IMG/VR virus record: IMGVR_UViG_3300045988_034723
Location: 1-15,715 of that record
DNA: 15,715 nucleotides
Reading direction: 5' to 3' (one strand)
Source of the DNA: a virus
Positions 167 through 15,715 of the stretch are shown piece by piece (the first letter of the stretch is position 1; each line of letters opens with the position of its first letter). The notes beneath the pieces were generated by a model. That model was not told the origin of the DNA. It was given only the letters and a program-made list of their open reading frames with translations, and did not search any database. Made by a program: the position numbers and the translations under genes.

Positions 167-206
167 GGAATTGATACCCTCATTTCAAGTTTTATGTAAA
201 CCAATA

Positions 207-229
207 TTGTTAACAAATTGTTCACAATT
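207..229. promoter_or_regulatory. Operator-like palindromes just upstream of P2: TTGTTAACAA (207-216) and AATTGTTCACAATT (216-229)
   Basis: A perfect 10-bp palindrome and a 6+6 palindrome (AATTGT-TC-ACAATT) share the ATTGTT/AACAAT half-site. They end 7 bp upstream of the P2 -35 box. Confidence 0.35.
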
Positions 230-235
230 AATCTA

Positions 236-263
236 TTGACATATTCAGTATTAAGAGTATAAT
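236..263 (+). promoter_or_regulatory. Early promoter P2 (sigmaA-type)
   Basis: TTGACA (236-241), 16-bp spacer, TATAAT (258-263). The upstream context CTATTGACA matches that of P1. Confidence 0.65.
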
Positions 264-308
264 AGTATATAGATACAAGATAAACAATAACAAATAAGGA
301 TGGCTAAT

Positions 309-506
309 ATGGTTCTAGAAGTATACGAGAAATCGTCAAACAAAATAGTTGATGTGAAAAAAGACAGCCATTTTAAAGATTATGGTGTTGTGGTTAGCCT
401 GGATGGTCATATGATGCTCACTAGTTATGGAGATATAGTTTGTAGTGTTGACGATAGAAAATACGGAGTAAGGCTAGCAAGCCAGGGAGGTGAATCTAAA
501 TGCTAA
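309..506 (+). CDS. Hypothetical early protein (65 aa; 68 aa if started at ATG 300)
   Basis: First ORF after the early promoters. The SD TAAGGA (295-300) overlaps ATG 300 but lies 8 nt upstream of ATG 309. I recognise no motif. Confidence 0.55.
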   Translation: MVLEVYEKSSNKIVDVKKDSHFKDYGVVVSLDGHMMLTSYGDIVCSVDDRKYGVRLASQGGESKC

Positions 507-2392: not shown

Positions 2393-2432
2393 CATAATTA
2401 TTTAACGGCACCGATTGGAGGATTATAAGAAT

Positions 2433-4295
2433 GTGCGAACACGCAATTATGAGTACTATGTATGTGACTTTGAAACAACAGTATTTAAAGGCCAAACCTA
2501 TACAGAAGTGTGGGCCGCCGCATTGGTCAAACTCGGGTCAGAAGATGTAGAAATTTATCAATCCATCAGCGATTTTCTGGATGGAGTATTTGACTTAGGA
2601 TGTAATGTAATAGGATACTTCCATAATCTTAAGTTTGATGGTAATTTTATCATAGATTACCTTCTGCGAAACAATTACAAGTGGAACAGGACATCCGAAC
2701 GTAACATGAACAACAATGATTTTAAGTGTGCTATCAGTGATAGAGGTGCATGGTATACCATTACTATTAAGCATAAGAACAACATCATTGAGTTTAGGGA
2801 TTCGCTAAAGCTTTTACCATTTAGTGTAGAACGCATTGGAAAGTCATTCAAGACGAAACACAAGAAGCTTAATATGGAATACGAGGGATTCAGATTTGCC
2901 GGATGCGTGATAACTCCAGAGGAAAGGGAGTATATAGCTAATGACGTATTAGTAGTTAAAGAAGCACTTGAAATTATGTTTGAGAGGGGTCACCAAAAAT
3001 TAACAATTGGTTCCTGCTGTCTGGAGGAGTTTAAGCAGACATACGACAAGCAGGATTATCAGAACTTTTTCCCGGATTTAACGGAGGTGGAAATAGATGA
3101 ACAGACATATGGGGAACGAACTGCCGATGCATACATCCGCCATAGTTACCGTGGAGGATATTGCTACCTTGTTAAAGGAAAAGAGAATCATATGTACAAC
3201 CGAGGATGGACAGCAGATATCAATAGTTCTTATCCTTCAAACATGTCCTCAGAATCAGGAAATTACTACCCCGTTGGCAAACCACAATTCTGGACAGGAG
3301 AAATTCCAGAGGTGGCTAAAGAAAACTATTATTTTGTCAGAATCAGATGCAGATTCCAGGTAAAACCAGGGATGTTGCCAACGGTACAGATTAAAGGAAG
3401 CTTTCTGTACGTAGGTACAGACTACCTAACCACAAGCGATTATTATGATTATAGCACGGGAACATACAAACGTTATTACATGAAAAATGGGAAGTTACAT
3501 GATAGCTATGTAACCATGACCATGACAGGCGTTGACTATGAGTTGTTTCTTAAGCACTACAATGTATTCGACTTAAAAATACTGGACGGGTGCTGGTTCC
3601 GGCAGGAGATTGGGTTATTTGATGAGTACATGTATAAGTATAAGCAGATTAAGGAGAATAGCAAGGATGCTGAAAGGGAATTAGCAAAGCTTTACCTTAA
3701 TAATCTGTACGGCAAGTTCTCATCTAATGACCTATCAAGTTACAAGGTCCCATATATTAACGACAAGAATGTCTTAGGTTTTGAAATAGTAGAAGAGCAT
3801 GAGAAAAAGCCGGGTTTCATAGCAGTCGGAAGTGCAATCACATCATATGCAAGGAGGTTTGTAATCAATGCCGCACAAGCTAATTATCAAGGGCCGGACA
3901 GGGACGGTTTCATATACTGCGATACAGATTCCATTCATTGTAGTGGCAATCCTAATGACGCCAAAGGAATTAAGATTCATCCTACAAATTTCTGCGCGTG
4001 GAAACTCGAGAGTTATTGGGACAAAGCGATTTTTGTTCGGCAGAAAACGTATATTGAGCATGTCACTCACAACGATGGGGAACCAGTAGAACCATATTAC
4101 TCAATCAGGTGTGCTGGTATGGGTGAGAAAGCAAAACAGGAGTTCCTTAAAGAATATGATATACACGAGTTTAAAGAAGGTCTTAAGCTTAATAATATGT
4201 TAAAACCAGTCAGAATGCCTGGAGGAATTGTATTAGTAAATAAGGGTTATCATATGACTCCAAAGCGGTTTAATAAATTCAAGGAGGAAGAATAA
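2433..4295 (+). CDS. Family-B protein-primed DNA polymerase (phi29 p2-like)
   Basis: Motifs seen: ExoI CDFETT, ExoII HNLKFDGNFI, ExoIII YIANDV, YRGG, motif A DINSSYPS, motif B KLYLNNLYGKF, motif C IYCDTDSIH, and KxY as RQKTYIE. There is no in-frame ATG. Candidate starts are TTG 2415 (ORF track, no SD) and GTG 2433 (SD GGAGGA 2417-2422), which places the ExoI Asp at residue 12 as in phi29. Confidence 0.95.
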   Translation: MRTRNYEYYVCDFETTVFKGQTYTEVWAAALVKLGSEDVEIYQSISDFLDGVFDLGCNVIGYFHNLKFDGNFIIDYLLRNNYKWNRTSERNMNNNDFKCAISDRGAWYTITIKHKNNIIEFRDSLKLLPFSVERIGKSFKTKHKKLNMEYEGFRFAGCVITPEEREYIANDVLVVKEALEIMFERGHQKLTIGSCCLEEFKQTYDKQDYQNFFPDLTEVEIDEQTYGERTADAYIRHSYRGGYCYLVKGKENHMYNRGWTADINSSYPSNMSSESGNYYPVGKPQFWTGEIPEVAKENYYFVRIRCRFQVKPGMLPTVQIKGSFLYVGTDYLTTSDYYDYSTGTYKRYYMKNGKLHDSYVTMTMTGVDYELFLKHYNVFDLKILDGCWFRQEIGLFDEYMYKYKQIKENSKDAERELAKLYLNNLYGKFSSNDLSSYKVPYINDKNVLGFEIVEEHEKKPGFIAVGSAITSYARRFVINAAQANYQGPDRDGFIYCDTDSIHCSGNPNDAKGIKIHPTNFCAWKLESYWDKAIFVRQKTYIEHVTHNDGEPVEPYYSIRCAGMGEKAKQEFLKEYDIHEFKEGLKLNNMLKPVRMPGGIVLVNKGYHMTPKRFNKFKEEE

Positions 4296-4471: not shown

Positions 4472-4493
4472 CAATATTTGCGCAAGTATTGTT
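4470..4493. other. 24-bp near-perfect palindrome AACAATATTTGCGCAAGTATTGTT
   Basis: Arms AACAATA/TATTGTT plus inner TTGC/GCAA. It overlaps the stop of the Zn-ribbon ORF and shares the ATTGTT/AACAAT half-site with the 207-229 palindromes. It could be a hairpin or a protein-binding site. Confidence 0.4.
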
Positions 4494-4530
4494 AAAGGGA
4501 GGATAAGATTATCCTCCCTTTGTATATCTG
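4494..4530. terminator. Intrinsic terminator at the convergence of the early operon (+) and the ATPase unit (-), possibly bidirectional
   Basis: AAAGGGAGGAT (4494-4504) pairs with ATCCTCCCTTT (4511-4521), about 11 bp. It has an A-tract on one side and TTTGTATAT on the other. Confidence 0.6.
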
Positions 4531-4688
4531 AACAGATGGTCTATAAAGTGGGTTTCCAGTACCCTATACCCCATCGGCATGTTTTACCATGTGGATTCCG
4601 ACAGTGGCAAATTATAGATAACACCTGTAGATACTATAATGTAGCGCACTGATGCGCACGTAGGTTCTCGTCCTAAAGGACGTAACAA
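4522..4688 (-). ncRNA. Candidate structured RNA (possible packaging/prohead RNA); strand uncertain
   Basis: No SD-preceded ORF. A closing helix 4532-4546 / 4612-4628 (7+7 bp) encloses two arms (4550-4564 and 4571-4607), forming a three-way junction. Complementary 4-mers TCCA (4555-4558) and TGGA (4592-4595) sit in the two arm loops. Extra hairpins lie at 4644-4657 and 4669-4682. The region is adjacent to the packaging ATPase. Confidence 0.3.
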
Positions 4689-5720
4689 TCAATATGAAAG
4701 TAATTTGATAAGCATCTGTTTACAGTCTAGGTTCTTGAATCTAAAACACCCCTGGTTGAACAGCATACGGAAATGATTGATTAACAGTGCATTCTTTGCT
4801 ATCATAACATAGTTTATGTTGTGGTCGTCTGTAGTCAATGAAAGCTTATATGGGAAGCTACTGTCATAGTTATCAGTAACATACATGATGCCCAAGCCGT
4901 CATACTCATAGACGGCGTAGTGCTTCTTAAGGTACTTTACCGTGTAGCAATACCTTCCACGCCCCTCAGGCTTATCGATGAATGAGAAGTTATCATTAAG
5001 GTACACATTTTGACTTGCGTACATAACATAATCGCTGGATGCGAATGCCCTGTTGAATCCTGAGTCTAGTTGTGCATCGCTAGCAGACTGAATGAAACCT
5101 TGCTCAAGGACAAATCCATCACCTCTCAGGAAATTAGTTTCTTTCTTAAGCCTATCACTGATTCCAAGGCTTGCGTAGTAAGGATTAAGAAGGCTTACAG
5201 TGTTGCCACACATATACACTGGCACGTAACGAATCTGCTTACCGTTACCACGGGCAATACTGGTATGCACTGATAACAGTTTACGGATTTCATCCGTGCA
5301 ATATTTGTTTGTCTCGCTTTGAAACTCATCCATCATCATACGTTCCACGTCATTAAACAGGTGACTGTATTTCTTGATTGCGTCAGCGTTATTAAGCGCA
5401 ATAGCATAACCGCATGGCTCATCATTTAGGAACATTTCATGGAAGATTCCTTTAGCCATAGGACGGCTTGTCATTTCATCATCAGGAAAGAACAAGCCAT
5501 GTATATCCTTAAAGAATTTCTCTGCACAATCTGACAACTCATAGTTGAACCTATAAATCAGGCAGAATTTACCCTTACCCTGTTTGAACTTCTTAACAAG
5601 ATAACGGCTAAACCACGTGGTCTTACCACCTGTTCGGTTGGTAGTCACCATAAACAGTTCTGGTTCACGACCGTTAAGGTCTTTCATGGACAACAACTTT
5701 GTCCCGTCATAGTAAGCCAT
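4689..5720 (-). CDS. DNA encapsidation (packaging) ATPase, phi29 gp16-like, 343 aa
   Basis: Walker A TNRTGGKTT, Walker B MMMDEF, and CGNTVSLLNPYY (cf. remembered phi29 gp16 LSNAVSVVNPYF). SD AGGAG lies 6 nt before the ATG. It is the only convincing minus-strand gene. Confidence 0.9.
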   Translation of the reverse strand: MAYYDGTKLLSMKDLNGREPELFMVTTNRTGGKTTWFSRYLVKKFKQGKGKFCLIYRFNYELSDCAEKFFKDIHGLFFPDDEMTSRPMAKGIFHEMFLNDEPCGYAIALNNADAIKKYSHLFNDVERMMMDEFQSETNKYCTDEIRKLLSVHTSIARGNGKQIRYVPVYMCGNTVSLLNPYYASLGISDRLKKETNFLRGDGFVLEQGFIQSASDAQLDSGFNRAFASSDYVMYASQNVYLNDNFSFIDKPEGRGRYCYTVKYLKKHYAVYEYDGLGIMYVTDNYDSSFPYKLSLTTDDHNINYVMIAKNALLINHFRMLFNQGCFRFKNLDCKQMLIKLLSY

Positions 5721-5754: not shown

Positions 5755-5783
5755 ATTGTAGCACATTTTCATTGACAAGTCAA
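5755..5783 (-). promoter_or_regulatory. Promoter of the ATPase gene (sigmaA-type, extended -10)
   Basis: On the minus strand: TTGACT (complement of 5778-5783), 17-bp spacer, TGc, TACAAT (complement of 5755-5760). Confidence 0.7.
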
Positions 5784-9472: not shown

Positions 9473-10987
9473 ATGTATGTAGCCCCAAACAGTAATGTCA
9501 GGGTACTTAAGAATGTACCAGTTGACAATACTTATCGTAATACAATCTATTTTTCAACGGCGGCAGCACAGGCGGCTTATTTCACCACGCTTACAAAATT
9601 TAACAATCCTGCTCTGTCATACGTTAATCTTAATGAGCCAATCATGATTGGTATTAACGCAGAACAATTGTATGATTGTAATTACATGATGTTTCAGAAC
9701 GCATCCTTTGGTACAAAATGGTTCTACGCTTTCATTACATCTGTTAAGTATATCAACAACGAAACGTCTGAGATTACGATGGAAATTGACGTGATGCAGA
9801 CGTGGTTCTTTGATTATACAGTTAATCCGTCATTCGTGGTTAGGGAACACTCACTGACAGATGGCATAGGTGAGAACCTTGTGCCAGAAGATTTAGAGTT
9901 AGGAGAATACATCTACGATACGGCGTTTAGGACGGATTACATGAACGACTATTCAGTGGTAGTAGCGGCAACCGTTGATAGCACCGGACAGCCTGGAACA
10001 AGCACAGGTGGATATGGTAACATCTATTCTGGTTGTTGGCTACACGTATTTGACACGTTTCCAGCCGTGGCGGTGTTCCTTGATAAACTTGTTAACGATA
10101 ACAAGGCGGACGCTGTAGTATCTATTTTCATGATGCCGTCAAGCTTCACCACAGCAATGGGTTCCCCGGCTAAACACTATACCATAGAGCGTGACAAACA
10201 GCGTGGAAGCATTGATGGCTATACCCCAAAGAACAACAAGTTATTCACATACCCATACTGTTTCCTATATGTAACTAATCTCATGGGTAATAGCGCAACC
10301 TACAAATATGAGTACTTTAACTCAGCAAATTGCGTGTTTGACTTTGCAATGGATATGTCCCCTAACCCTACCGGGATGCTCACGCCATTAGGATACAAGA
10401 ACGTTGGGGCTAACTACAACGAGTCCATGACAATCAGCGGATTCCCTCAGTGCTCATTCACCACTGACACATATAGGGCGTGGCTTGCTCAGAACGGTTC
10501 CAGCATGACCATTGATATGCTGGGTAGTGCCATGGCGGCTTCGGTCGGTGCAATTACAGGTGGTCCTATCGGCGCAATAGGTGCGGTGGGTGGATTCACT
10601 AACGTGGCTAAAACACTCGCACGTGTTAACGCTATATCCGCACAGCCACCGCAATCACATGGCTCTCAATCAAATACTGCACAGGTTGCGTTTTCAGTTA
10701 AGGATTTCTGGTTCTTAAACTATCACATTAGGGCTGAGTTCGCGAAAATCATAGATGATTACTTTAACACATATGGTTACGCGACCCATAGAGTTAAGGT
10801 CCCCAACCGCAGTCAAAGGCCACATTGGAATTATGTAAAGACACAAAACTCTAACCTGACAGGCAGTGTTCCAGCAGAAGATATGGCTAAACTTAGAGGG
10901 ATATACGACAACGGGTTGACGTTTTGGAAGAACGGTTCAGAAGTTGGTAACTACGGATTGGATAACAGAGTGGGAGGAGGCGCATAA
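9473..10987 (+). CDS. Tail knob / distal tube protein (phi29 gp9-like), 504 aa
   Basis: NVRVLKNVPVDNTYRNTIYF and YMMFQNASFGTKWFYAFIT...EIDVMQTWFFDY...FVVREH match the remembered gp9 N-terminus. A Gly/Ala-rich hydrophobic loop (AMAASVGAITGGPIGAIGAVGG) fits the membrane-inserting loop. SD GGAGGA lies 6 nt before ATG 9473; the ORF-track start at 9380 overlaps the capsid gene. Confidence 0.85.
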   Translation: MYVAPNSNVRVLKNVPVDNTYRNTIYFSTAAAQAAYFTTLTKFNNPALSYVNLNEPIMIGINAEQLYDCNYMMFQNASFGTKWFYAFITSVKYINNETSEITMEIDVMQTWFFDYTVNPSFVVREHSLTDGIGENLVPEDLELGEYIYDTAFRTDYMNDYSVVVAATVDSTGQPGTSTGGYGNIYSGCWLHVFDTFPAVAVFLDKLVNDNKADAVVSIFMMPSSFTTAMGSPAKHYTIERDKQRGSIDGYTPKNNKLFTYPYCFLYVTNLMGNSATYKYEYFNSANCVFDFAMDMSPNPTGMLTPLGYKNVGANYNESMTISGFPQCSFTTDTYRAWLAQNGSSMTIDMLGSAMAASVGAITGGPIGAIGAVGGFTNVAKTLARVNAISAQPPQSHGSQSNTAQVAFSVKDFWFLNYHIRAEFAKIIDDYFNTYGYATHRVKVPNRSQRPHWNYVKTQNSNLTGSVPAEDMAKLRGIYDNGLTFWKNGSEVGNYGLDNRVGGGA

Positions 10988-11896
10988 ATGGCTAGAGGGC
11001 ATAACAACGTAAACGGGCCAAAGGGCGACAGGGAGTTCTGGAATGCCAAGAAATGTAATGACTGGACGTTCATACAATACTACAACCGTTTGGTTGACCT
11101 GTGCATATCTCAGTTTGAGTGGATTAACTTACCACCAACCTGCGACAGAAGGTTCCTTGAACTTACGCTTATGGCAGATGGCATGGCCGTGTTCTTTAGG
11201 GATGAAATCATGGGCTACCTGTCATTGCAATGTATGATATCAGGTCCGCTTGATGTATACAGGATACCTATCTTACGCAGAGCCTACGCTAGTAACGGCT
11301 ATCAAATGCCGCTAGATAATTTAAATAGTGTGCTTATCTTTAACAACTCACTGCACACAAACAGTCAGTTGGATATCGAGATGTATGCTTGGAGATTATA
11401 CGAAGTACAGAGGGCAATCGACACCAATATAAAATTACAGAAAACCCCAAAGATTGTTAAGTGTTCCGAAAATCAGCGGTTGACCATTATCAATCTGTTT
11501 AAACAGTACGAGGGTAACTATCCGTTCATATTTGCTGACAAGGCAATGGACTTGAAGGGCCTGGAATCAATTGACATAGCGGCACCTTATGTGTCTGATA
11601 AATTGATGGTTATAAAACAGCAGATATGGGACGAAGCTATGACATATCTTGGAATAGCTAACACTAACACATCAAAACGTGAAAGACTTAACACGTCTGA
11701 GATATCGGTAGGAATGGGGGATGTGGAAGCACAGAGATATACTCGATTGATGGAAAGAGAGATTGCTGTTGAAAGGATTAATGCCATGTTTGGTCTTGAC
11801 ATGGAAGTTAGATACAAACAGGTAATACCAACATTGCCGGATAACCTGGAAGATGGCGAAGAAGTAGAAACTGAGGAAAAGGAGGTTGACGAATGA
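10988..11896 (+). CDS. Portal / head-tail connector (upper collar, phi29 gp10-like), 302 aa
   Basis: FEWINLPPT, QKTPKIV...NQRLTIINLFKQYEGNYPFIFA and APYVSDKL match the remembered gp10 blocks. SD GGAGGAGG. Confidence 0.9.
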   Translation: MARGHNNVNGPKGDREFWNAKKCNDWTFIQYYNRLVDLCISQFEWINLPPTCDRRFLELTLMADGMAVFFRDEIMGYLSLQCMISGPLDVYRIPILRRAYASNGYQMPLDNLNSVLIFNNSLHTNSQLDIEMYAWRLYEVQRAIDTNIKLQKTPKIVKCSENQRLTIINLFKQYEGNYPFIFADKAMDLKGLESIDIAAPYVSDKLMVIKQQIWDEAMTYLGIANTNTSKRERLNTSEISVGMGDVEAQRYTRLMEREIAVERINAMFGLDMEVRYKQVIPTLPDNLEDGEEVETEEKEVDE

Positions 11897-12726: not shown

Positions 12727-15407
12727 CTACTACAAATTTTAAAAGCATACCATTGCTTAGACAGTGGTGCATGTTGACATTGCCAACCGTGTTTAATGAC
12801 GCATTAAGCTATAATGAACAGGTGTGCAAGCTGACACAGGCAATCAACGAAATGGCTACCACAATTAACGGTTTACCAGACTACATCATTGAGTTAGTCA
12901 AGGAACTGTTAGACCAGATGAACTTGGAAGAGATTGTAAAACAGGTACTTGCTGATTACTTTTTCATCAACGTTAAGAATCCTCCTGCGCTGTTAGTTGC
13001 GGCAAAAGGTGATGGAATTGCCAATGATACTGCCGCTATACAGGCAATGATTAACTATGTCAGCGGTAAGAAAAACTACCTGTTCTTTCCGGCTGGGATT
13101 TATTCTGTGAACGAGTTAACAATGGTACCCAATGTTAGCTTGGTGGGGCAGGATAGATTCCAGGCAATCATAAATCTGGAAGCTGGTAGCAACACCGACC
13201 TGCTTACAGGAGAGATGGGAAACTGCACGATTAGCAACTTGACCTTGAGTGCTAACATGCCTGGGCAGACTCAGAACTGTAGCGTTTACAACGGCAACGT
13301 GACAAGTATGCTGTTCGATAATGTTATATTTAAGAATGGATTCAATGTTCTTAGTCTGGATATTGATGGACTGGTTCAGATGAGTAGTGTTGTTGTGGAT
13401 GGTGCACAGGGCAACGGTGTCATGATTGGTGGCTCAAGATGTAGTGTGGATAACATTGATTTTATCAACACTAGCGCACTTAATAACGAGACACTGTTAA
13501 CTGTCTCAGGTGCCAACCACGTGATTCAGAACGTTACTTGCTACACGGCTATTAAAAACGGTGTGACTGTTAACGGCAATAACAATGTGGTAAAAGGAGT
13601 GATACTCAATGCTATTACTCCAGTCACTAATACTGGAACTAATAACAGAATTGAGATTGTTACTACGAACAATAACATCGAGATTCAGAACGGAACCTCA
13701 AAGACTGTTTCCGGGCCTTACGAGATATCGGCTTCTAGTTCAACCGAATTGATTGCTGGAGATAAGGACATTACTGCAAATAATGTGGAAATAAGTGCTA
13801 CTGGAAATCTGAATGTACATGGGGCTACTGCGGATGTCGCGGCTACGAACGGGGTGACGATTGCTGGAACAGATATTGCATTAAACCCCACAAATCCTTT
13901 ACGGTATAAGACACCAACCCCAATTAATAACAGATTAAGTTATGTTCCTTTTAAAGACGCAAATTCTGTATATCAGGTGTTGGTGGGTAGTAATGACCTG
14001 ACAAATGCAATGATGTACTACCCAGCAGAAAATACGGATATAACAACAGAACTTAATCAGTTGCTTACACAAAGAGATGTTGTTATTGCCCCCGGAACTT
14101 ACATTATTAGTTCGAGAATTTTAATACCAATCAATCGTATGTTAATTGGAAATAATACGATACTTACTACCTCTAGTACGTATACAGATGCATATATGGT
14201 CCAGATTGGGGCTAATACACCTCCGGCGGCTGACAGTGACGCTACTTATCAGAAATCGAAAACTGGTATGTTCGGAGTTAATCTTAATTGTAACTTAAAA
14301 TGTAGTGGAATTTTGGTTATGACAAGAGGGGCGGAAATTCACTACTCTAAAATCACTCTTCCTATTATTACAGGGTGCGGTATAGATATATTCCCGTATG
14401 GAGTTGAACCACCTATATCCGCTGATTGCTACGTAAATTACGTGGAAGTTGTAAACAATGATAAAGGAAATGCTGAACCTAATCCTGCAACTGTATTTGC
14501 ATACGGCATTAGAACAAACGGAAGTGATAACTATATCTATGGATTTAGAACTTTCGGTAGTAAGGTTGGTATATGGTGTAGCGCATACTCTGGAGGAACA
14601 ACTATTACAGATAGCCATGTTTTATGTTGCAGTTCGGCTGATAGTGCGTGGACTGGTAGCATAGGCTATGATTGCTCTTTAAGCAATAGCATTACTTTGA
14701 CGGATTGCTATGCAGACAACTTTAACACGGGTTGTATTTTGTACTTGAATAGTTGTATTACAAATTTCTTCTACTATTGCTGGGAAACCACAAGCGATAC
14801 AACAAGAACTGCTATAAAGGTGTTAAACACAAACAACTCAATCTGTGGGCTAGTAAGTTTCAGTCCAAAAACTATAATGCTGGACGTTGCAAAGGAATAT
14901 CCGTTTCAGAGTACAAACCTTATTAGCGTGGGACAATTCCCGTATCATGACACATTTATTCCAGATGATGATATGTGGAAAATGATTCTTAGAAATTGCT
15001 ACAGCTACTTTGTGGTTCCCACTACAACTACGTTTGTGTTTGGCGGCATTAACGGATATGGTGCTCTTGCACCTAATATATTCAACTTACATGCTGATAA
15101 AGTAAATCTTACTGGATTTAGTATAGGCACTACTGAGGTAAAATGGGGTGAGTGTGACTACAATGGGGCTATCGCAACTATTTACAACAAACCGGGTACT
15201 AATATTAGATATGTTACCTTGGAATTACCTGGTTACACAATAACTCCAAACGAAGCGTTTATTGTAAGTACTCCGGCACCTATTGCACATTTAATTATGC
15301 CTAGAGAGATTAGTAACTTAAGTGTAGCTGGTTGGACAAATGAGGGTAGCCATACGTATACGGTTCCTGCGACGGTTACTAGTGTTGAAAATGAGGAGGT
15401 ATTATAA
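12702..15407 (+). CDS. Tailspike / pre-neck appendage (phi29 gp12 analogue) with pectate-lyase-type right-handed beta-helix module(s)
   Basis: N-terminal anchor motif PTVFNDALSYNEQVCKL, then AAKGDGIANDTAAIQAMINYV...FFPAGIYSV (pectate_lyase_3-like). A second beta-helix-like entry motif is VVIAPGTYIISSRILIPINRMLIGNN. The start is ambiguous: ATG 12702 has no SD, TTG 12723 has SD AGGGGG 9 nt upstream and a TTGA overlap with the collar stop, and ATG 12771 is a third option. Confidence 0.8.
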   Translation: MDRGLSILTTTNFKSIPLLRQWCMLTLPTVFNDALSYNEQVCKLTQAINEMATTINGLPDYIIELVKELLDQMNLEEIVKQVLADYFFINVKNPPALLVAAKGDGIANDTAAIQAMINYVSGKKNYLFFPAGIYSVNELTMVPNVSLVGQDRFQAIINLEAGSNTDLLTGEMGNCTISNLTLSANMPGQTQNCSVYNGNVTSMLFDNVIFKNGFNVLSLDIDGLVQMSSVVVDGAQGNGVMIGGSRCSVDNIDFINTSALNNETLLTVSGANHVIQNVTCYTAIKNGVTVNGNNNVVKGVILNAITPVTNTGTNNRIEIVTTNNNIEIQNGTSKTVSGPYEISASSSTELIAGDKDITANNVEISATGNLNVHGATADVAATNGVTIAGTDIALNPTNPLRYKTPTPINNRLSYVPFKDANSVYQVLVGSNDLTNAMMYYPAENTDITTELNQLLTQRDVVIAPGTYIISSRILIPINRMLIGNNTILTTSSTYTDAYMVQIGANTPPAADSDATYQKSKTGMFGVNLNCNLKCSGILVMTRGAEIHYSKITLPIITGCGIDIFPYGVEPPISADCYVNYVEVVNNDKGNAEPNPATVFAYGIRTNGSDNYIYGFRTFGSKVGIWCSAYSGGTTITDSHVLCCSSADSAWTGSIGYDCSLSNSITLTDCYADNFNTGCILYLNSCITNFFYYCWETTSDTTRTAIKVLNTNNSICGLVSFSPKTIMLDVAKEYPFQSTNLISVGQFPYHDTFIPDDDMWKMILRNCYSYFVVPTTTTFVFGGINGYGALAPNIFNLHADKVNLTGFSIGTTEVKWGECDYNGAIATIYNKPGTNIRYVTLELPGYTITPNEAFIVSTPAPIAHLIMPREISNLSVAGWTNEGSHTYTVPATVTSVENEEVL

Positions 15408-15691: not shown

Positions 15692-15715
15692 GGCGAAAAA
15701 AAATTAAAGGGGCAA
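15692..15715. repeat. Right inverted terminal repeat (perfect 24-bp core; degenerate similarity extends inward to about nt 15606)
   Basis: GGCGAAAAAAAATTAAAGGGGCAA is the reverse complement of nt 1-24. Subterminal blocks at 15655-15665 and 15622-15646 mirror left-end blocks at 49-59 and 67-92. Confidence 0.95.

Follow-up and report, generated by a model that had tools for sequence, protein, structure and literature searches.

We propose that a 111-nt RNA encoded next to the packaging ATPase gene of a phi29-like podophage is probably the packaging RNA (pRNA, or prohead RNA) of this phage's DNA packaging motor, a reading based on comparative sequence analysis. The genome in question is the 15,715-bp window studied here, that is, the whole stretch of DNA in IMG/VR virus record IMGVR_UViG_3300045988_034723. 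The RNA gene (4524-4634, minus strand) lies in a gap of 167 nt, which extends from a shared hairpin at 4494-4521 to the stop codon of the ATPase gene. We consider it nearly beyond doubt that this locus encodes a functional structured RNA. By analogy with phi29, the RNA would be a sequence-divergent and relocated pRNA with a role in packaging: it agrees with pRNA in every architectural feature that can be tested, but it falls outside the Rfam pRNA family RF00044, and its likeness to classical pRNA may reflect either common descent or convergence.

The RNA consists of the following elements, with subelements given in the 5′-to-3′ direction of the transcript:

4524-4634, minus strand: pRNA-like RNA core of 111 nt, a three-way junction whose 5′ end (4634) and 3′ end (4524) pair to close it
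4612-4634, minus strand: helix A, 5′ strand, with GUAUCU (4634-4629) and ACAGGUG (4628-4622) in the lower helix, a 3-nt bulge or internal loop UUA (4621-4619), and UCUAUAA (4618-4612) in the upper 7 bp
4567-4609, minus strand: C/E arm, in which the C helix is formed by 4609-4606 and 4604-4598 with 4577-4567, with a 1-nt bulge A at 4605
4597-4592, minus strand: one-sided "CE-type" bulge AAUCCA, 6 nt, between the C and E helices of this arm
4592-4595, minus strand: "right-hand" kissing sequence UCCA of the one-sided bulge, complementary to UGGA of the D loop
4591-4578, minus strand: E helix CAUG/CAUG (4591-4588 with 4581-4578) and E loop GUAAAA (4587-4582)
4550-4564, minus strand: D hairpin, with GGGU (4564-4561), the 7-nt loop ACUGGAA (4560-4554), and ACCC (4553-4550)
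4558-4555, minus strand: "left-hand" kissing sequence UGGA of the D loop
4524-4546, minus strand: helix A, 3′ strand, with UUAUAGA (4546-4540), an unpaired C (4539), CAUCUGU (4538-4532), the bulge UC (4531-4530), and AGAUAU (4529-4524)

This arrangement conforms to the pRNA plan of a domain of approximately 115-120 nt that is closed by an A helix with a 5′-strand bulge near the junction, and of a three-way junction in which, in the 5′-to-3′ direction, a C helix carrying the E hairpin is followed by the D hairpin. A sequence-only reading of the window had already drawn the closing helix as 7 + 7 bp. We confirmed the underlying pairing of ACAGATGGTCTATAA (4532-4546) with TTATAGATAACACCTGT (4612-4628), but the outermost 6 bp, formed by 4524-4529 with 4629-4634, had been overlooked; because of these additional base pairs, the core of the RNA is 4524-4634. 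The compound arm described in that reading is present (4567-4609), and the positions it gave for the GGGT/ACCC hairpin (4550-4564), for TCCA (4555-4558) and TGGA (4592-4595), and for two small hairpins beside the core (4644-4657 and 4669-4682) are all correct.

When both strands were folded, the minus strand reached -53.1 kcal/mol (z = -3.53), with the three-way junction as its minimum free energy structure and only 1 of 200 shuffled sequences folding as well, while the plus strand had a z of -1.60. No open reading frame (ORF) longer than 38 amino acids overlaps the gap, none of the reading frames is open in more than 11 of the 66 distinct sequences of the family (aligned below), and a search of the region revealed no tRNA or tmRNA. 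The gap can, therefore, be regarded as non-coding, as was originally supposed.

Compensatory changes among relatives provide the evidence for the structure. A search of IMG/VR for the ATPase yielded at least 278 stretches that encode it, and 80 loci, with ATPase identities of 64-99%, were kept. In relatives, the segment corresponding to positions 4481-4636 of the window is retained directly 3′ of the ATPase stop codon (blastn). In a MAFFT alignment of 25 representatives (A1), built from the sequences without structural information, 93.3% of the helix cells pair and 26 of the 43 base pairs change on both sides, which are the compensatory substitutions that the proposed junction implied. None of 500 shuffles matches these values, and only 33-42% of the cells pair when the partners are slid by 1-3 columns. 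Within helix A, columns 9-21 with 106-120 are 96.6% paired and columns 25-31 with 98-104 are 97.1% paired, and 10 pairs have changed on both sides. Double-sided changes are also found in 8 of the 11 pairs of the C helix and in all 4 pairs of the E helix. The A, C, and E helices were recovered independently by RNAalifold, with 21 of their pairs covarying. The trinucleotide ACC at 4540-4538 is unchanged in 25 of 25 aligned sequences.

The D helix gained support after structure-aware alignment. In alignment A2, in which 66 distinct sequences were fitted to the structure via a model, 93.9% of the D helix cells are paired and three of its four pairs show double-sided change. Taken over all helices, A2 has 93.3% paired cells, double-sided change at 29 of 39 pairs, and a covariation score of 0.653 (slid controls, ≤0.094). 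The E loop is GNAAAA-like in nearly all of the 66 sequences. Cells with G·U outnumber those with A·C by 308 to 30, and we therefore conclude that selection acts on the minus-strand transcript. The single sequence had pointed weakly in this direction, and both the G·U excess and the difference between the z scores of the two strands strengthen the case.

As in pRNA, the one-sided bulge between the C and E helices is complementary to the D loop, and this complementarity covaries between phages. For UCCA of the bulge and UGGA of the D loop, 99% of the A1 cells pair, and three of the four positions covary. Approximately 14 different complementary bulge/D-loop pairs occur across clades:

Close and intermediate clades: UCCA/UGGA, ACCA/UGGU, UUCC(A)/(U)GGAA, GUCUG/CAGAC, UGUCA/UGACA, GCAA/UUGC, AAGC/GCUU, AGCAA/UUGCU
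Clostridium symbiosum phage CS229P1: CUGUA/UACAG
Locus L055: AAGCA/UGCUU
More distant genomes: GGGA/UCCC, GCUA/UAGC, UACAA/UUGUA, UGUGA/UCACA, GUAGU/ACUAC

Loop pairing was scored with a per-sequence complementarity test; the insert columns of A2 are out of register between clades. In 21 distinct bulge/loop combinations, the cognate Watson-Crick run has a mean length of 4.14 nt and is never shorter than 3 nt, as compared to a mean of 2.30 nt for shuffled D loops, of which ~8% reach 4 nt. A complementarity of 4-5 nt that covaries between phages is shared by the phi29 pRNA family and the RNA described here, and the same bulge/D-loop covariation pattern is seen in natural pRNAs (PMC4201828, PMC12670572). 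Together with the covariation in all helices and the RF00044-like architecture, these loop variants uphold the earlier suggestion of a pRNA-type three-way junction with complementary loops. One locus (L086; MT835854.1, 10284-10429) has an insertion of ~25 nt with extra small hairpins in its D arm; its bulge/D-loop complementarity is possibly GGUC/GACC, and it may be a structural variant of the RNA family.

The RNA gene is internal in the window (4524-4634), directly 3′ of the ATPase gene, and this linkage extends across the group. A covariance model built from A1 (R1) has exactly one match in the window (4516-4639, minus strand, 135.8 bits) and in 79 of the 80 loci, with scores from 142 down to 33 bits. 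Every one of these matches directly follows the ATPase gene in the same orientation, and the remaining locus was recovered with a second model (R2). In more divergent genomes, R2 has the following top matches:

MT835904: 12 nt 3′ of the stop codon of an ATPase 46% identical to that of the window
Hungatella phage CH17P1: between the polymerase and ATPase genes, directly 5′ of the ATPase ribosome-binding site
Clostridium phage CI130P2: between the polymerase and ATPase genes, directly 5′ of the ATPase ribosome-binding site
MT835826: just upstream of the ATPase gene, same strand
MT835873: just upstream of the ATPase gene, same strand

The ATPases of CH17P1, CI130P2, MT835826, and MT835873 are only 23-26% identical to that of the window and about as distant from it as that of phi29. 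These R2 matches are individually weak (E = 0.01-2). The chance of a random match adjoining the ATPase gene on the correct strand is ~1%, and each match has the full architecture and complementary loops. In Clostridium phage HM2, an RNA of the same architecture (~90 nt, delimited by eye) is found right after the ATPase gene. In total, all 81 close loci and 8 divergent genomes have the RNA beside the ATPase gene and read from the same strand, which corroborates the physical coupling to this gene that had been proposed for the window.

The distance between the two genes is variable. In one clade, a 54-amino-acid cysteine-rich ORF (MNFYNCPYVIVIPFRNGNEYDEDYGCDATGEYCQCCQCKLTAEECEQLIRKHEN) with a ribosome-binding site is inserted between the ATPase stop codon and the RNA (L015:4066-4230), and the same site is occupied in L016, L017, L025, L029, L030, L032, L033, L018, L024, and L035. 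This intervening ORF shows that the RNA and the ATPase gene need not be contiguous. The ATPase-RNA pair of the L057-L080 clade is located 20-390 nt from contig ends, a position resembling that of the near-terminal, outward-facing pRNA gene of phi29. One contig of this clade (L070, IMGVR_UViG_3300045988_122797) ends with the 22 nt AGATCGGAAGAGCGTCGTGTAG, an Illumina adapter, ~75 nt past the RNA terminator; this end is an assembly artifact and may mark a physical genome end.

The order of the elements is the same as in phi29 pRNA (RF00044 consensus), and most of the element sizes are within 1-2 units of each other. The total size is 111 nt, compared with 117 nt for domain I of phi29 pRNA. The lower A helix has 13 bp with a 2-nt bulge in the 3′ strand (14 bp in phi29) and the upper A helix has 7 bp (8 bp in phi29), with a 3-nt bulge in the 5′ strand that reads UUA opposite a single C here and CCA in phi29. 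The C helix is made up of 4 bp, a 1-nt bulge, and 7 bp (11 bp), whereas that of phi29 is made up of 5 bp, a 1-nt bulge, and 4 bp (9 bp). The C/E bulge is one-sided on the 5′ strand in both RNAs (6 nt here, 9 nt in phi29), both have an E helix of 4 bp and an E loop of 6 nt, and both have a D hairpin, with a helix of 4 bp and a 7-nt loop here and a helix of 6 bp in phi29. The two systems differ in gene location: the phi29 pRNA gene is found at the left genome end downstream of the early promoter A1, whereas here the gene is next to, and 3′ of, the ATPase gene. They also differ in hosts, which are Bacillus for the phi29-type pRNAs (phages phi29, PZA, Nf, M2, B103, SF5, and GA-1) and gut Clostridia for the RNA described here.

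A possible link to classical pRNA is found in Bacillus phage BeachBum, whose ATPase is, among those of Bacillus phages, the closest to that of the window (28% identity). The second-best R2 match over five genomes (185 kb) is at BeachBum 175-286 (minus strand, 13.5 bits), and it overlaps a sub-threshold RF00044 match at 171-288 (minus strand, 24.8 bits, E = 0.007 in 700 nt). In BeachBum, which with Harambe (Harambevirus) represents a divergent type of Bacillus-phage pRNA, R2 and RF00044 assign the same nucleotides to the C helix, the bulge, and the E and D hairpins. The BeachBum RNA has the canonical location at the left end with outward transcription, away from the ATPase gene, and both scores are far below the family thresholds. 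This match is the only bridge to classical pRNA, and a weak one.

Outside the Bacillus phages, a precedent is provided by the putative pRNA of Streptococcus phage Cp-1, reported in 1996 (Martin, Lopez & Garcia, J Virol 70:3678, as cited in PMC6266182), which a covariance model of Bacillus pRNAs could not reliably identify (PMC6266182); in this respect, it resembles the RNA described here. The GenBank record of Cp-1 has no pRNA feature, and R2 found nothing meaningful in Cp-1 or in Enterococcus phage vB_EfaP_2/Chl-5.

Several results weigh against identification of the RNA as a pRNA. The sequence-only reading had pointed to the Rfam pRNA model as a check, and this model does not detect the RNA: RF00044 (Phage_pRNA, gathering threshold 100 bits) has no match at E ≤ 10 in the whole window or in the region 4490-4700 (211 nt), and none in CH17P1, CI130P2, MT835826, or MT835873, while in the positive control it finds the phi29 pRNA at 201-318 (minus strand) with 145.4 bits. 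Conversely, R1 and R2 miss the phi29 pRNA even with filters off and, therefore, the similarity to classical pRNA may be convergent. The loop-loop pairing could also form within one molecule. Additionally, no promoter for the RNA was found in the window clade, with none within 90 nt upstream of helix A. The lack of a dedicated promoter in the window had been noticed before, and promoters of other members of the family are considered next.

In the window, the RNA gene directly follows the ATPase gene and precedes the shared terminator hairpin and, for this reason, the RNA is most likely the 3′ part of the ATPase transcript, from which it would then be trimmed. The elements of this unit are as follows:

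5755-5783, minus strand: promoter-like TTGACT-17-TACAAT, TG-extended, upstream of the ATPase gene and the only candidate promoter in the window for an ATPase-plus-RNA transcript
4637-4688, minus strand: two-hairpin insertion of 52 nt (CGUCC-UUUA-GGACG and GUGCGC-AUCA-GUGCGC) between the ATPase stop codon and the RNA
4494-4521, both strands: G+C-rich hairpin AAAGGGAGGAUAA...UUAUCCUCCCUUU, common to the convergent early operon (plus strand) and the ATPase/RNA unit (minus strand)

The hairpin at 4494-4521 immediately follows the RNA in each of the clades, where its stem has undergone compensatory changes, and it resembles the terminator parts of Rfam models. A strict terminator scan passes over it because of its short T-run. 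The RNA transcript probably ends at this hairpin.

An early sigma-A promoter of the RNA's own and a site near a genome end, as in phi29, are absent from the window and found in part among its relatives. No RNA promoter was seen in the window clade, in CS229P1, or in the L058 clade, where the RNA abuts the ATPase stop codon or follows a small ORF. In contrast, a sigma-70-type promoter, TTGACA-17-TAnAAT, ends 3-7 nt before helix A in CH17P1, CI130P2, MT835826, and MT835873 (TG-extended in three of the four), which is the same geometry as that of the phi29 A1 promoter, ending 7 nt before its pRNA. MT835904 has such a promoter with a -10 hexamer that overlaps the assumed start of helix A by 2 nt, and in HM2 a weaker promoter, TTGACC-17-TAAGAT with TG (9 of 12 matches), is followed by the RNA and then by a long hairpin and a U-run. 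In CH17P1 (13786-13810) and CI130P2 (~9978-10010), a U-run separates the 3′ strand of helix A from the ATPase ribosome-binding site; helix A might be a leaky terminator there and thereby determine how much free RNA is made relative to ATPase mRNA.

Some of these arrangements would also suit a cis-acting element in the untranslated region of the ATPase mRNA, such as an exonuclease stabilizer or an autoregulation site, with no role for the free RNA in the motor. The RNA is invariably on the ATPase strand; it adjoins the stop codon of the ATPase gene and lacks a separate promoter in the window clade, and it is located just 5′ of the ribosome-binding site of this gene in CH17P1 and CI130P2. We nevertheless regard this explanation as improbable. 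Depending on the clade, the RNA follows or precedes the ATPase gene, which is hard to reconcile with a position-dependent function, in HM2 and MT835904 it forms a promoter-to-terminator unit of its own after the ATPase gene, and in the L015 group the small ORF separates the two. Moreover, a stabilizer needs neither covarying bulge/loop complementarity nor a phi29-like A helix.

Alternatively, the RNA could act in trans in some other way, as a regulatory small RNA, an anti-defense RNA, or a ribozyme, with the bulge and the D loop forming an intramolecular pseudoknot and with a convergent likeness to pRNA. The lack of similarity to RF00044 at the covariance model level would fit this possibility, sequence analysis cannot tell intra- from intermolecular loop pairing, and this phage group carries other small structured RNAs, for example, a Pistol ribozyme (RF02679, 55 bits; gathering score, 34.5) near one genome end of MT835826.1 (L089; 16259-16334, minus strand). 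Yet, Rfam scans of the window and of the 211-nt region gave only chance or terminator-like matches, and no other family fits the RNA. The RNA is found only in genomes with a gp16-type ATPase, always beside that gene, and as some other kind of RNA it would need to imitate each element of pRNA. With 11 bp between the bulge and the junction and a D helix of just 4 bp, the two loops of one molecule could presumably meet only after a sharp fold-back. An RNA of this kind is, in our view, an unlikely explanation.

An element that acts as DNA, for example, a cruciform, a replication or packaging signal, or an extended terminator, might be expected between convergent transcription units and beside a bidirectional terminator-like hairpin, but we consider it very improbable: tolerance of G·U pairs is confined to one of the strands, the fold of the minus strand is far superior to that of the plus strand, and a three-way junction with loop-loop covariation has no rationale at the DNA level. 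A chance fold in a non-coding spacer has a negligible probability, for although a z of -3.5 and a 4-nt complementarity can occur by chance in a single sequence, compensatory change over 66 distinct sequences and several distant clades refutes it.

We also tried a sequence-free architecture descriptor (in Python). It places the true locus at the top for the window, phi29, CH17P1, and HM2 and misses those of CS229P1 and CI130P2. Its top score of 31, however, was also reached in 5 of 30 shuffled genomes, which speaks for a chance fold and against a pRNA; the descriptor was, therefore, rejected as evidence.

Interpreted as a pRNA, the RNA would operate as in phi29. It would fold into the three-way junction, and UCCA in the C/E bulge of one copy would pair with UGGA in the D loop of a neighboring copy, and several copies could in this way form a closed ring at the prohead's portal vertex. 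From this ring, the A helices would protrude and, with their conserved 3-nt bulge 7 bp below the junction, dock the gp16 ATPase, which would then pump the protein-primed linear genome into the head. Like phi29 pRNA, the RNA would be bound to proheads, needed for an RNase-sensitive packaging reaction, and missing from mature virions. Going further, we speculate that prohead RNA is an ancestral, general part of all gp16-type ATPase motors and no special feature of Bacillus phages. It would form a genetically linked, two-part "motor cassette" with the ATPase gene, and the window clade would make it as the 3′ untranslated end of its ATPase mRNA; freshly translated ATPase could bind the A helix of the very mRNA that encodes it, prior to release of the RNA (cis co-assembly of an RNA-protein motor). 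This extended proposal is tentative, and we think it rather unlikely to be correct.

The remainder of the genome is of the type in which a pRNA would be expected. A perfect inverted terminal repeat (ITR) of 24 nt, TTGCCCCTTTAATTTTTTTTCGCC, is present at both ends (1-24 and 15692-15715), with additional similarity continuing to approximately nucleotide 94, and we therefore conclude that the linear genome is complete in the window and intact at either end. Like phi29, it combines ITRs with a protein-primed polymerase, a gp16 ATPase, and a gp10 connector:

2415-4295, plus strand: PolB, a protein-primed type-B DNA polymerase (Pfam)
4689-5720, minus strand: gp16-type DNA encapsidation ATPase of 343 amino acids (Pfam PF05894 Podovirus_Gp16, E = 3e-27)
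10988-11896, plus strand: gp10-type connector (portal) (Pfam PF05352 Phage_connector, E = 5e-56), with the N-terminus MARGHNNVNGPKGDR

By analogy with phi29, the connector is the docking partner that is expected for a prohead RNA. The window also encodes a phi29-type major capsid protein and a gp9 tail knob (Pfam matches Phi29_MCP and gp9). Its closest deposited relatives are contigs from human feces and the Clostridium symbiosum phages CS229P1-3.

The two small hairpins beside the core had been likened to domain II of pRNA. We rejected this interpretation: the hairpins (4644-4682) belong to the 52-nt, lineage-specific insertion 5′ of the RNA (4637-4688), which the closest relatives (L001-L013) do not have; in these, helix A directly adjoins the TAG stop codon of the ATPase gene. 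The insertion sits between the last ATPase codon and the ancestral TAG, and it created a new TGA stop codon (4689-4691). Similar two-hairpin copies of ~50 nt, with compensatory changes in their stems, occur at other intergenic sites of related genomes and, in several clades, directly 5′ of the RNA (L031:1004-1033, minus strand; L031:6968-7006, plus strand; L024:954-983, minus strand; L012:710-737, minus strand; L020:4034-4075; L033:4240-4280). They may represent a small mobile or processing element.

A 2024 review describes pRNA as a feature confined, to current knowledge, to phi29 and its Bacillus-phage relatives (PMC11476376). In a 2025 survey with Infernal, all newly found pRNAs were from Bacillus phages (PMC12670572), and an archaeal ampullavirus has been mentioned as having a pRNA-like RNA (bioRxiv 10.1101/2020.07.06.188573). 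Our literature search found no account of the RNA family described here, nor of a pRNA gene adjoining an ATPase gene. While the machine part and its fold are known, a pRNA-like RNA beyond the reach of current models, its ATPase-linked site, and its abundant new host group are new. The RNA has been missed by Rfam and by genome annotations, as in CS229P1, where a gap of 180 nt is unannotated. It is carried by cultured isolates, namely, CS229P1 (Clostridium symbiosum), CH17P1 (Hungatella), CI130P2 (C. innocuum), and HM2. Its many natural kissing-loop variants and three-way-junction scaffolds provide material for studies of RNA rings and for pRNA-based RNA nanotechnology.

If the RNA is a pRNA, the range of pRNA-type RNAs widens to the podophages of human-gut Clostridia, in which at least 278 IMG/VR stretches encode the cognate ATPase. 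The linkage of the RNA to the ATPase gene bears on the question of whether pRNA is an ancient part of the packaging motor or a late recruit. These observations suggest that RNA-dependent packaging motors are found not only in Bacillus phages but also in a large group of phages of human-gut Clostridia.

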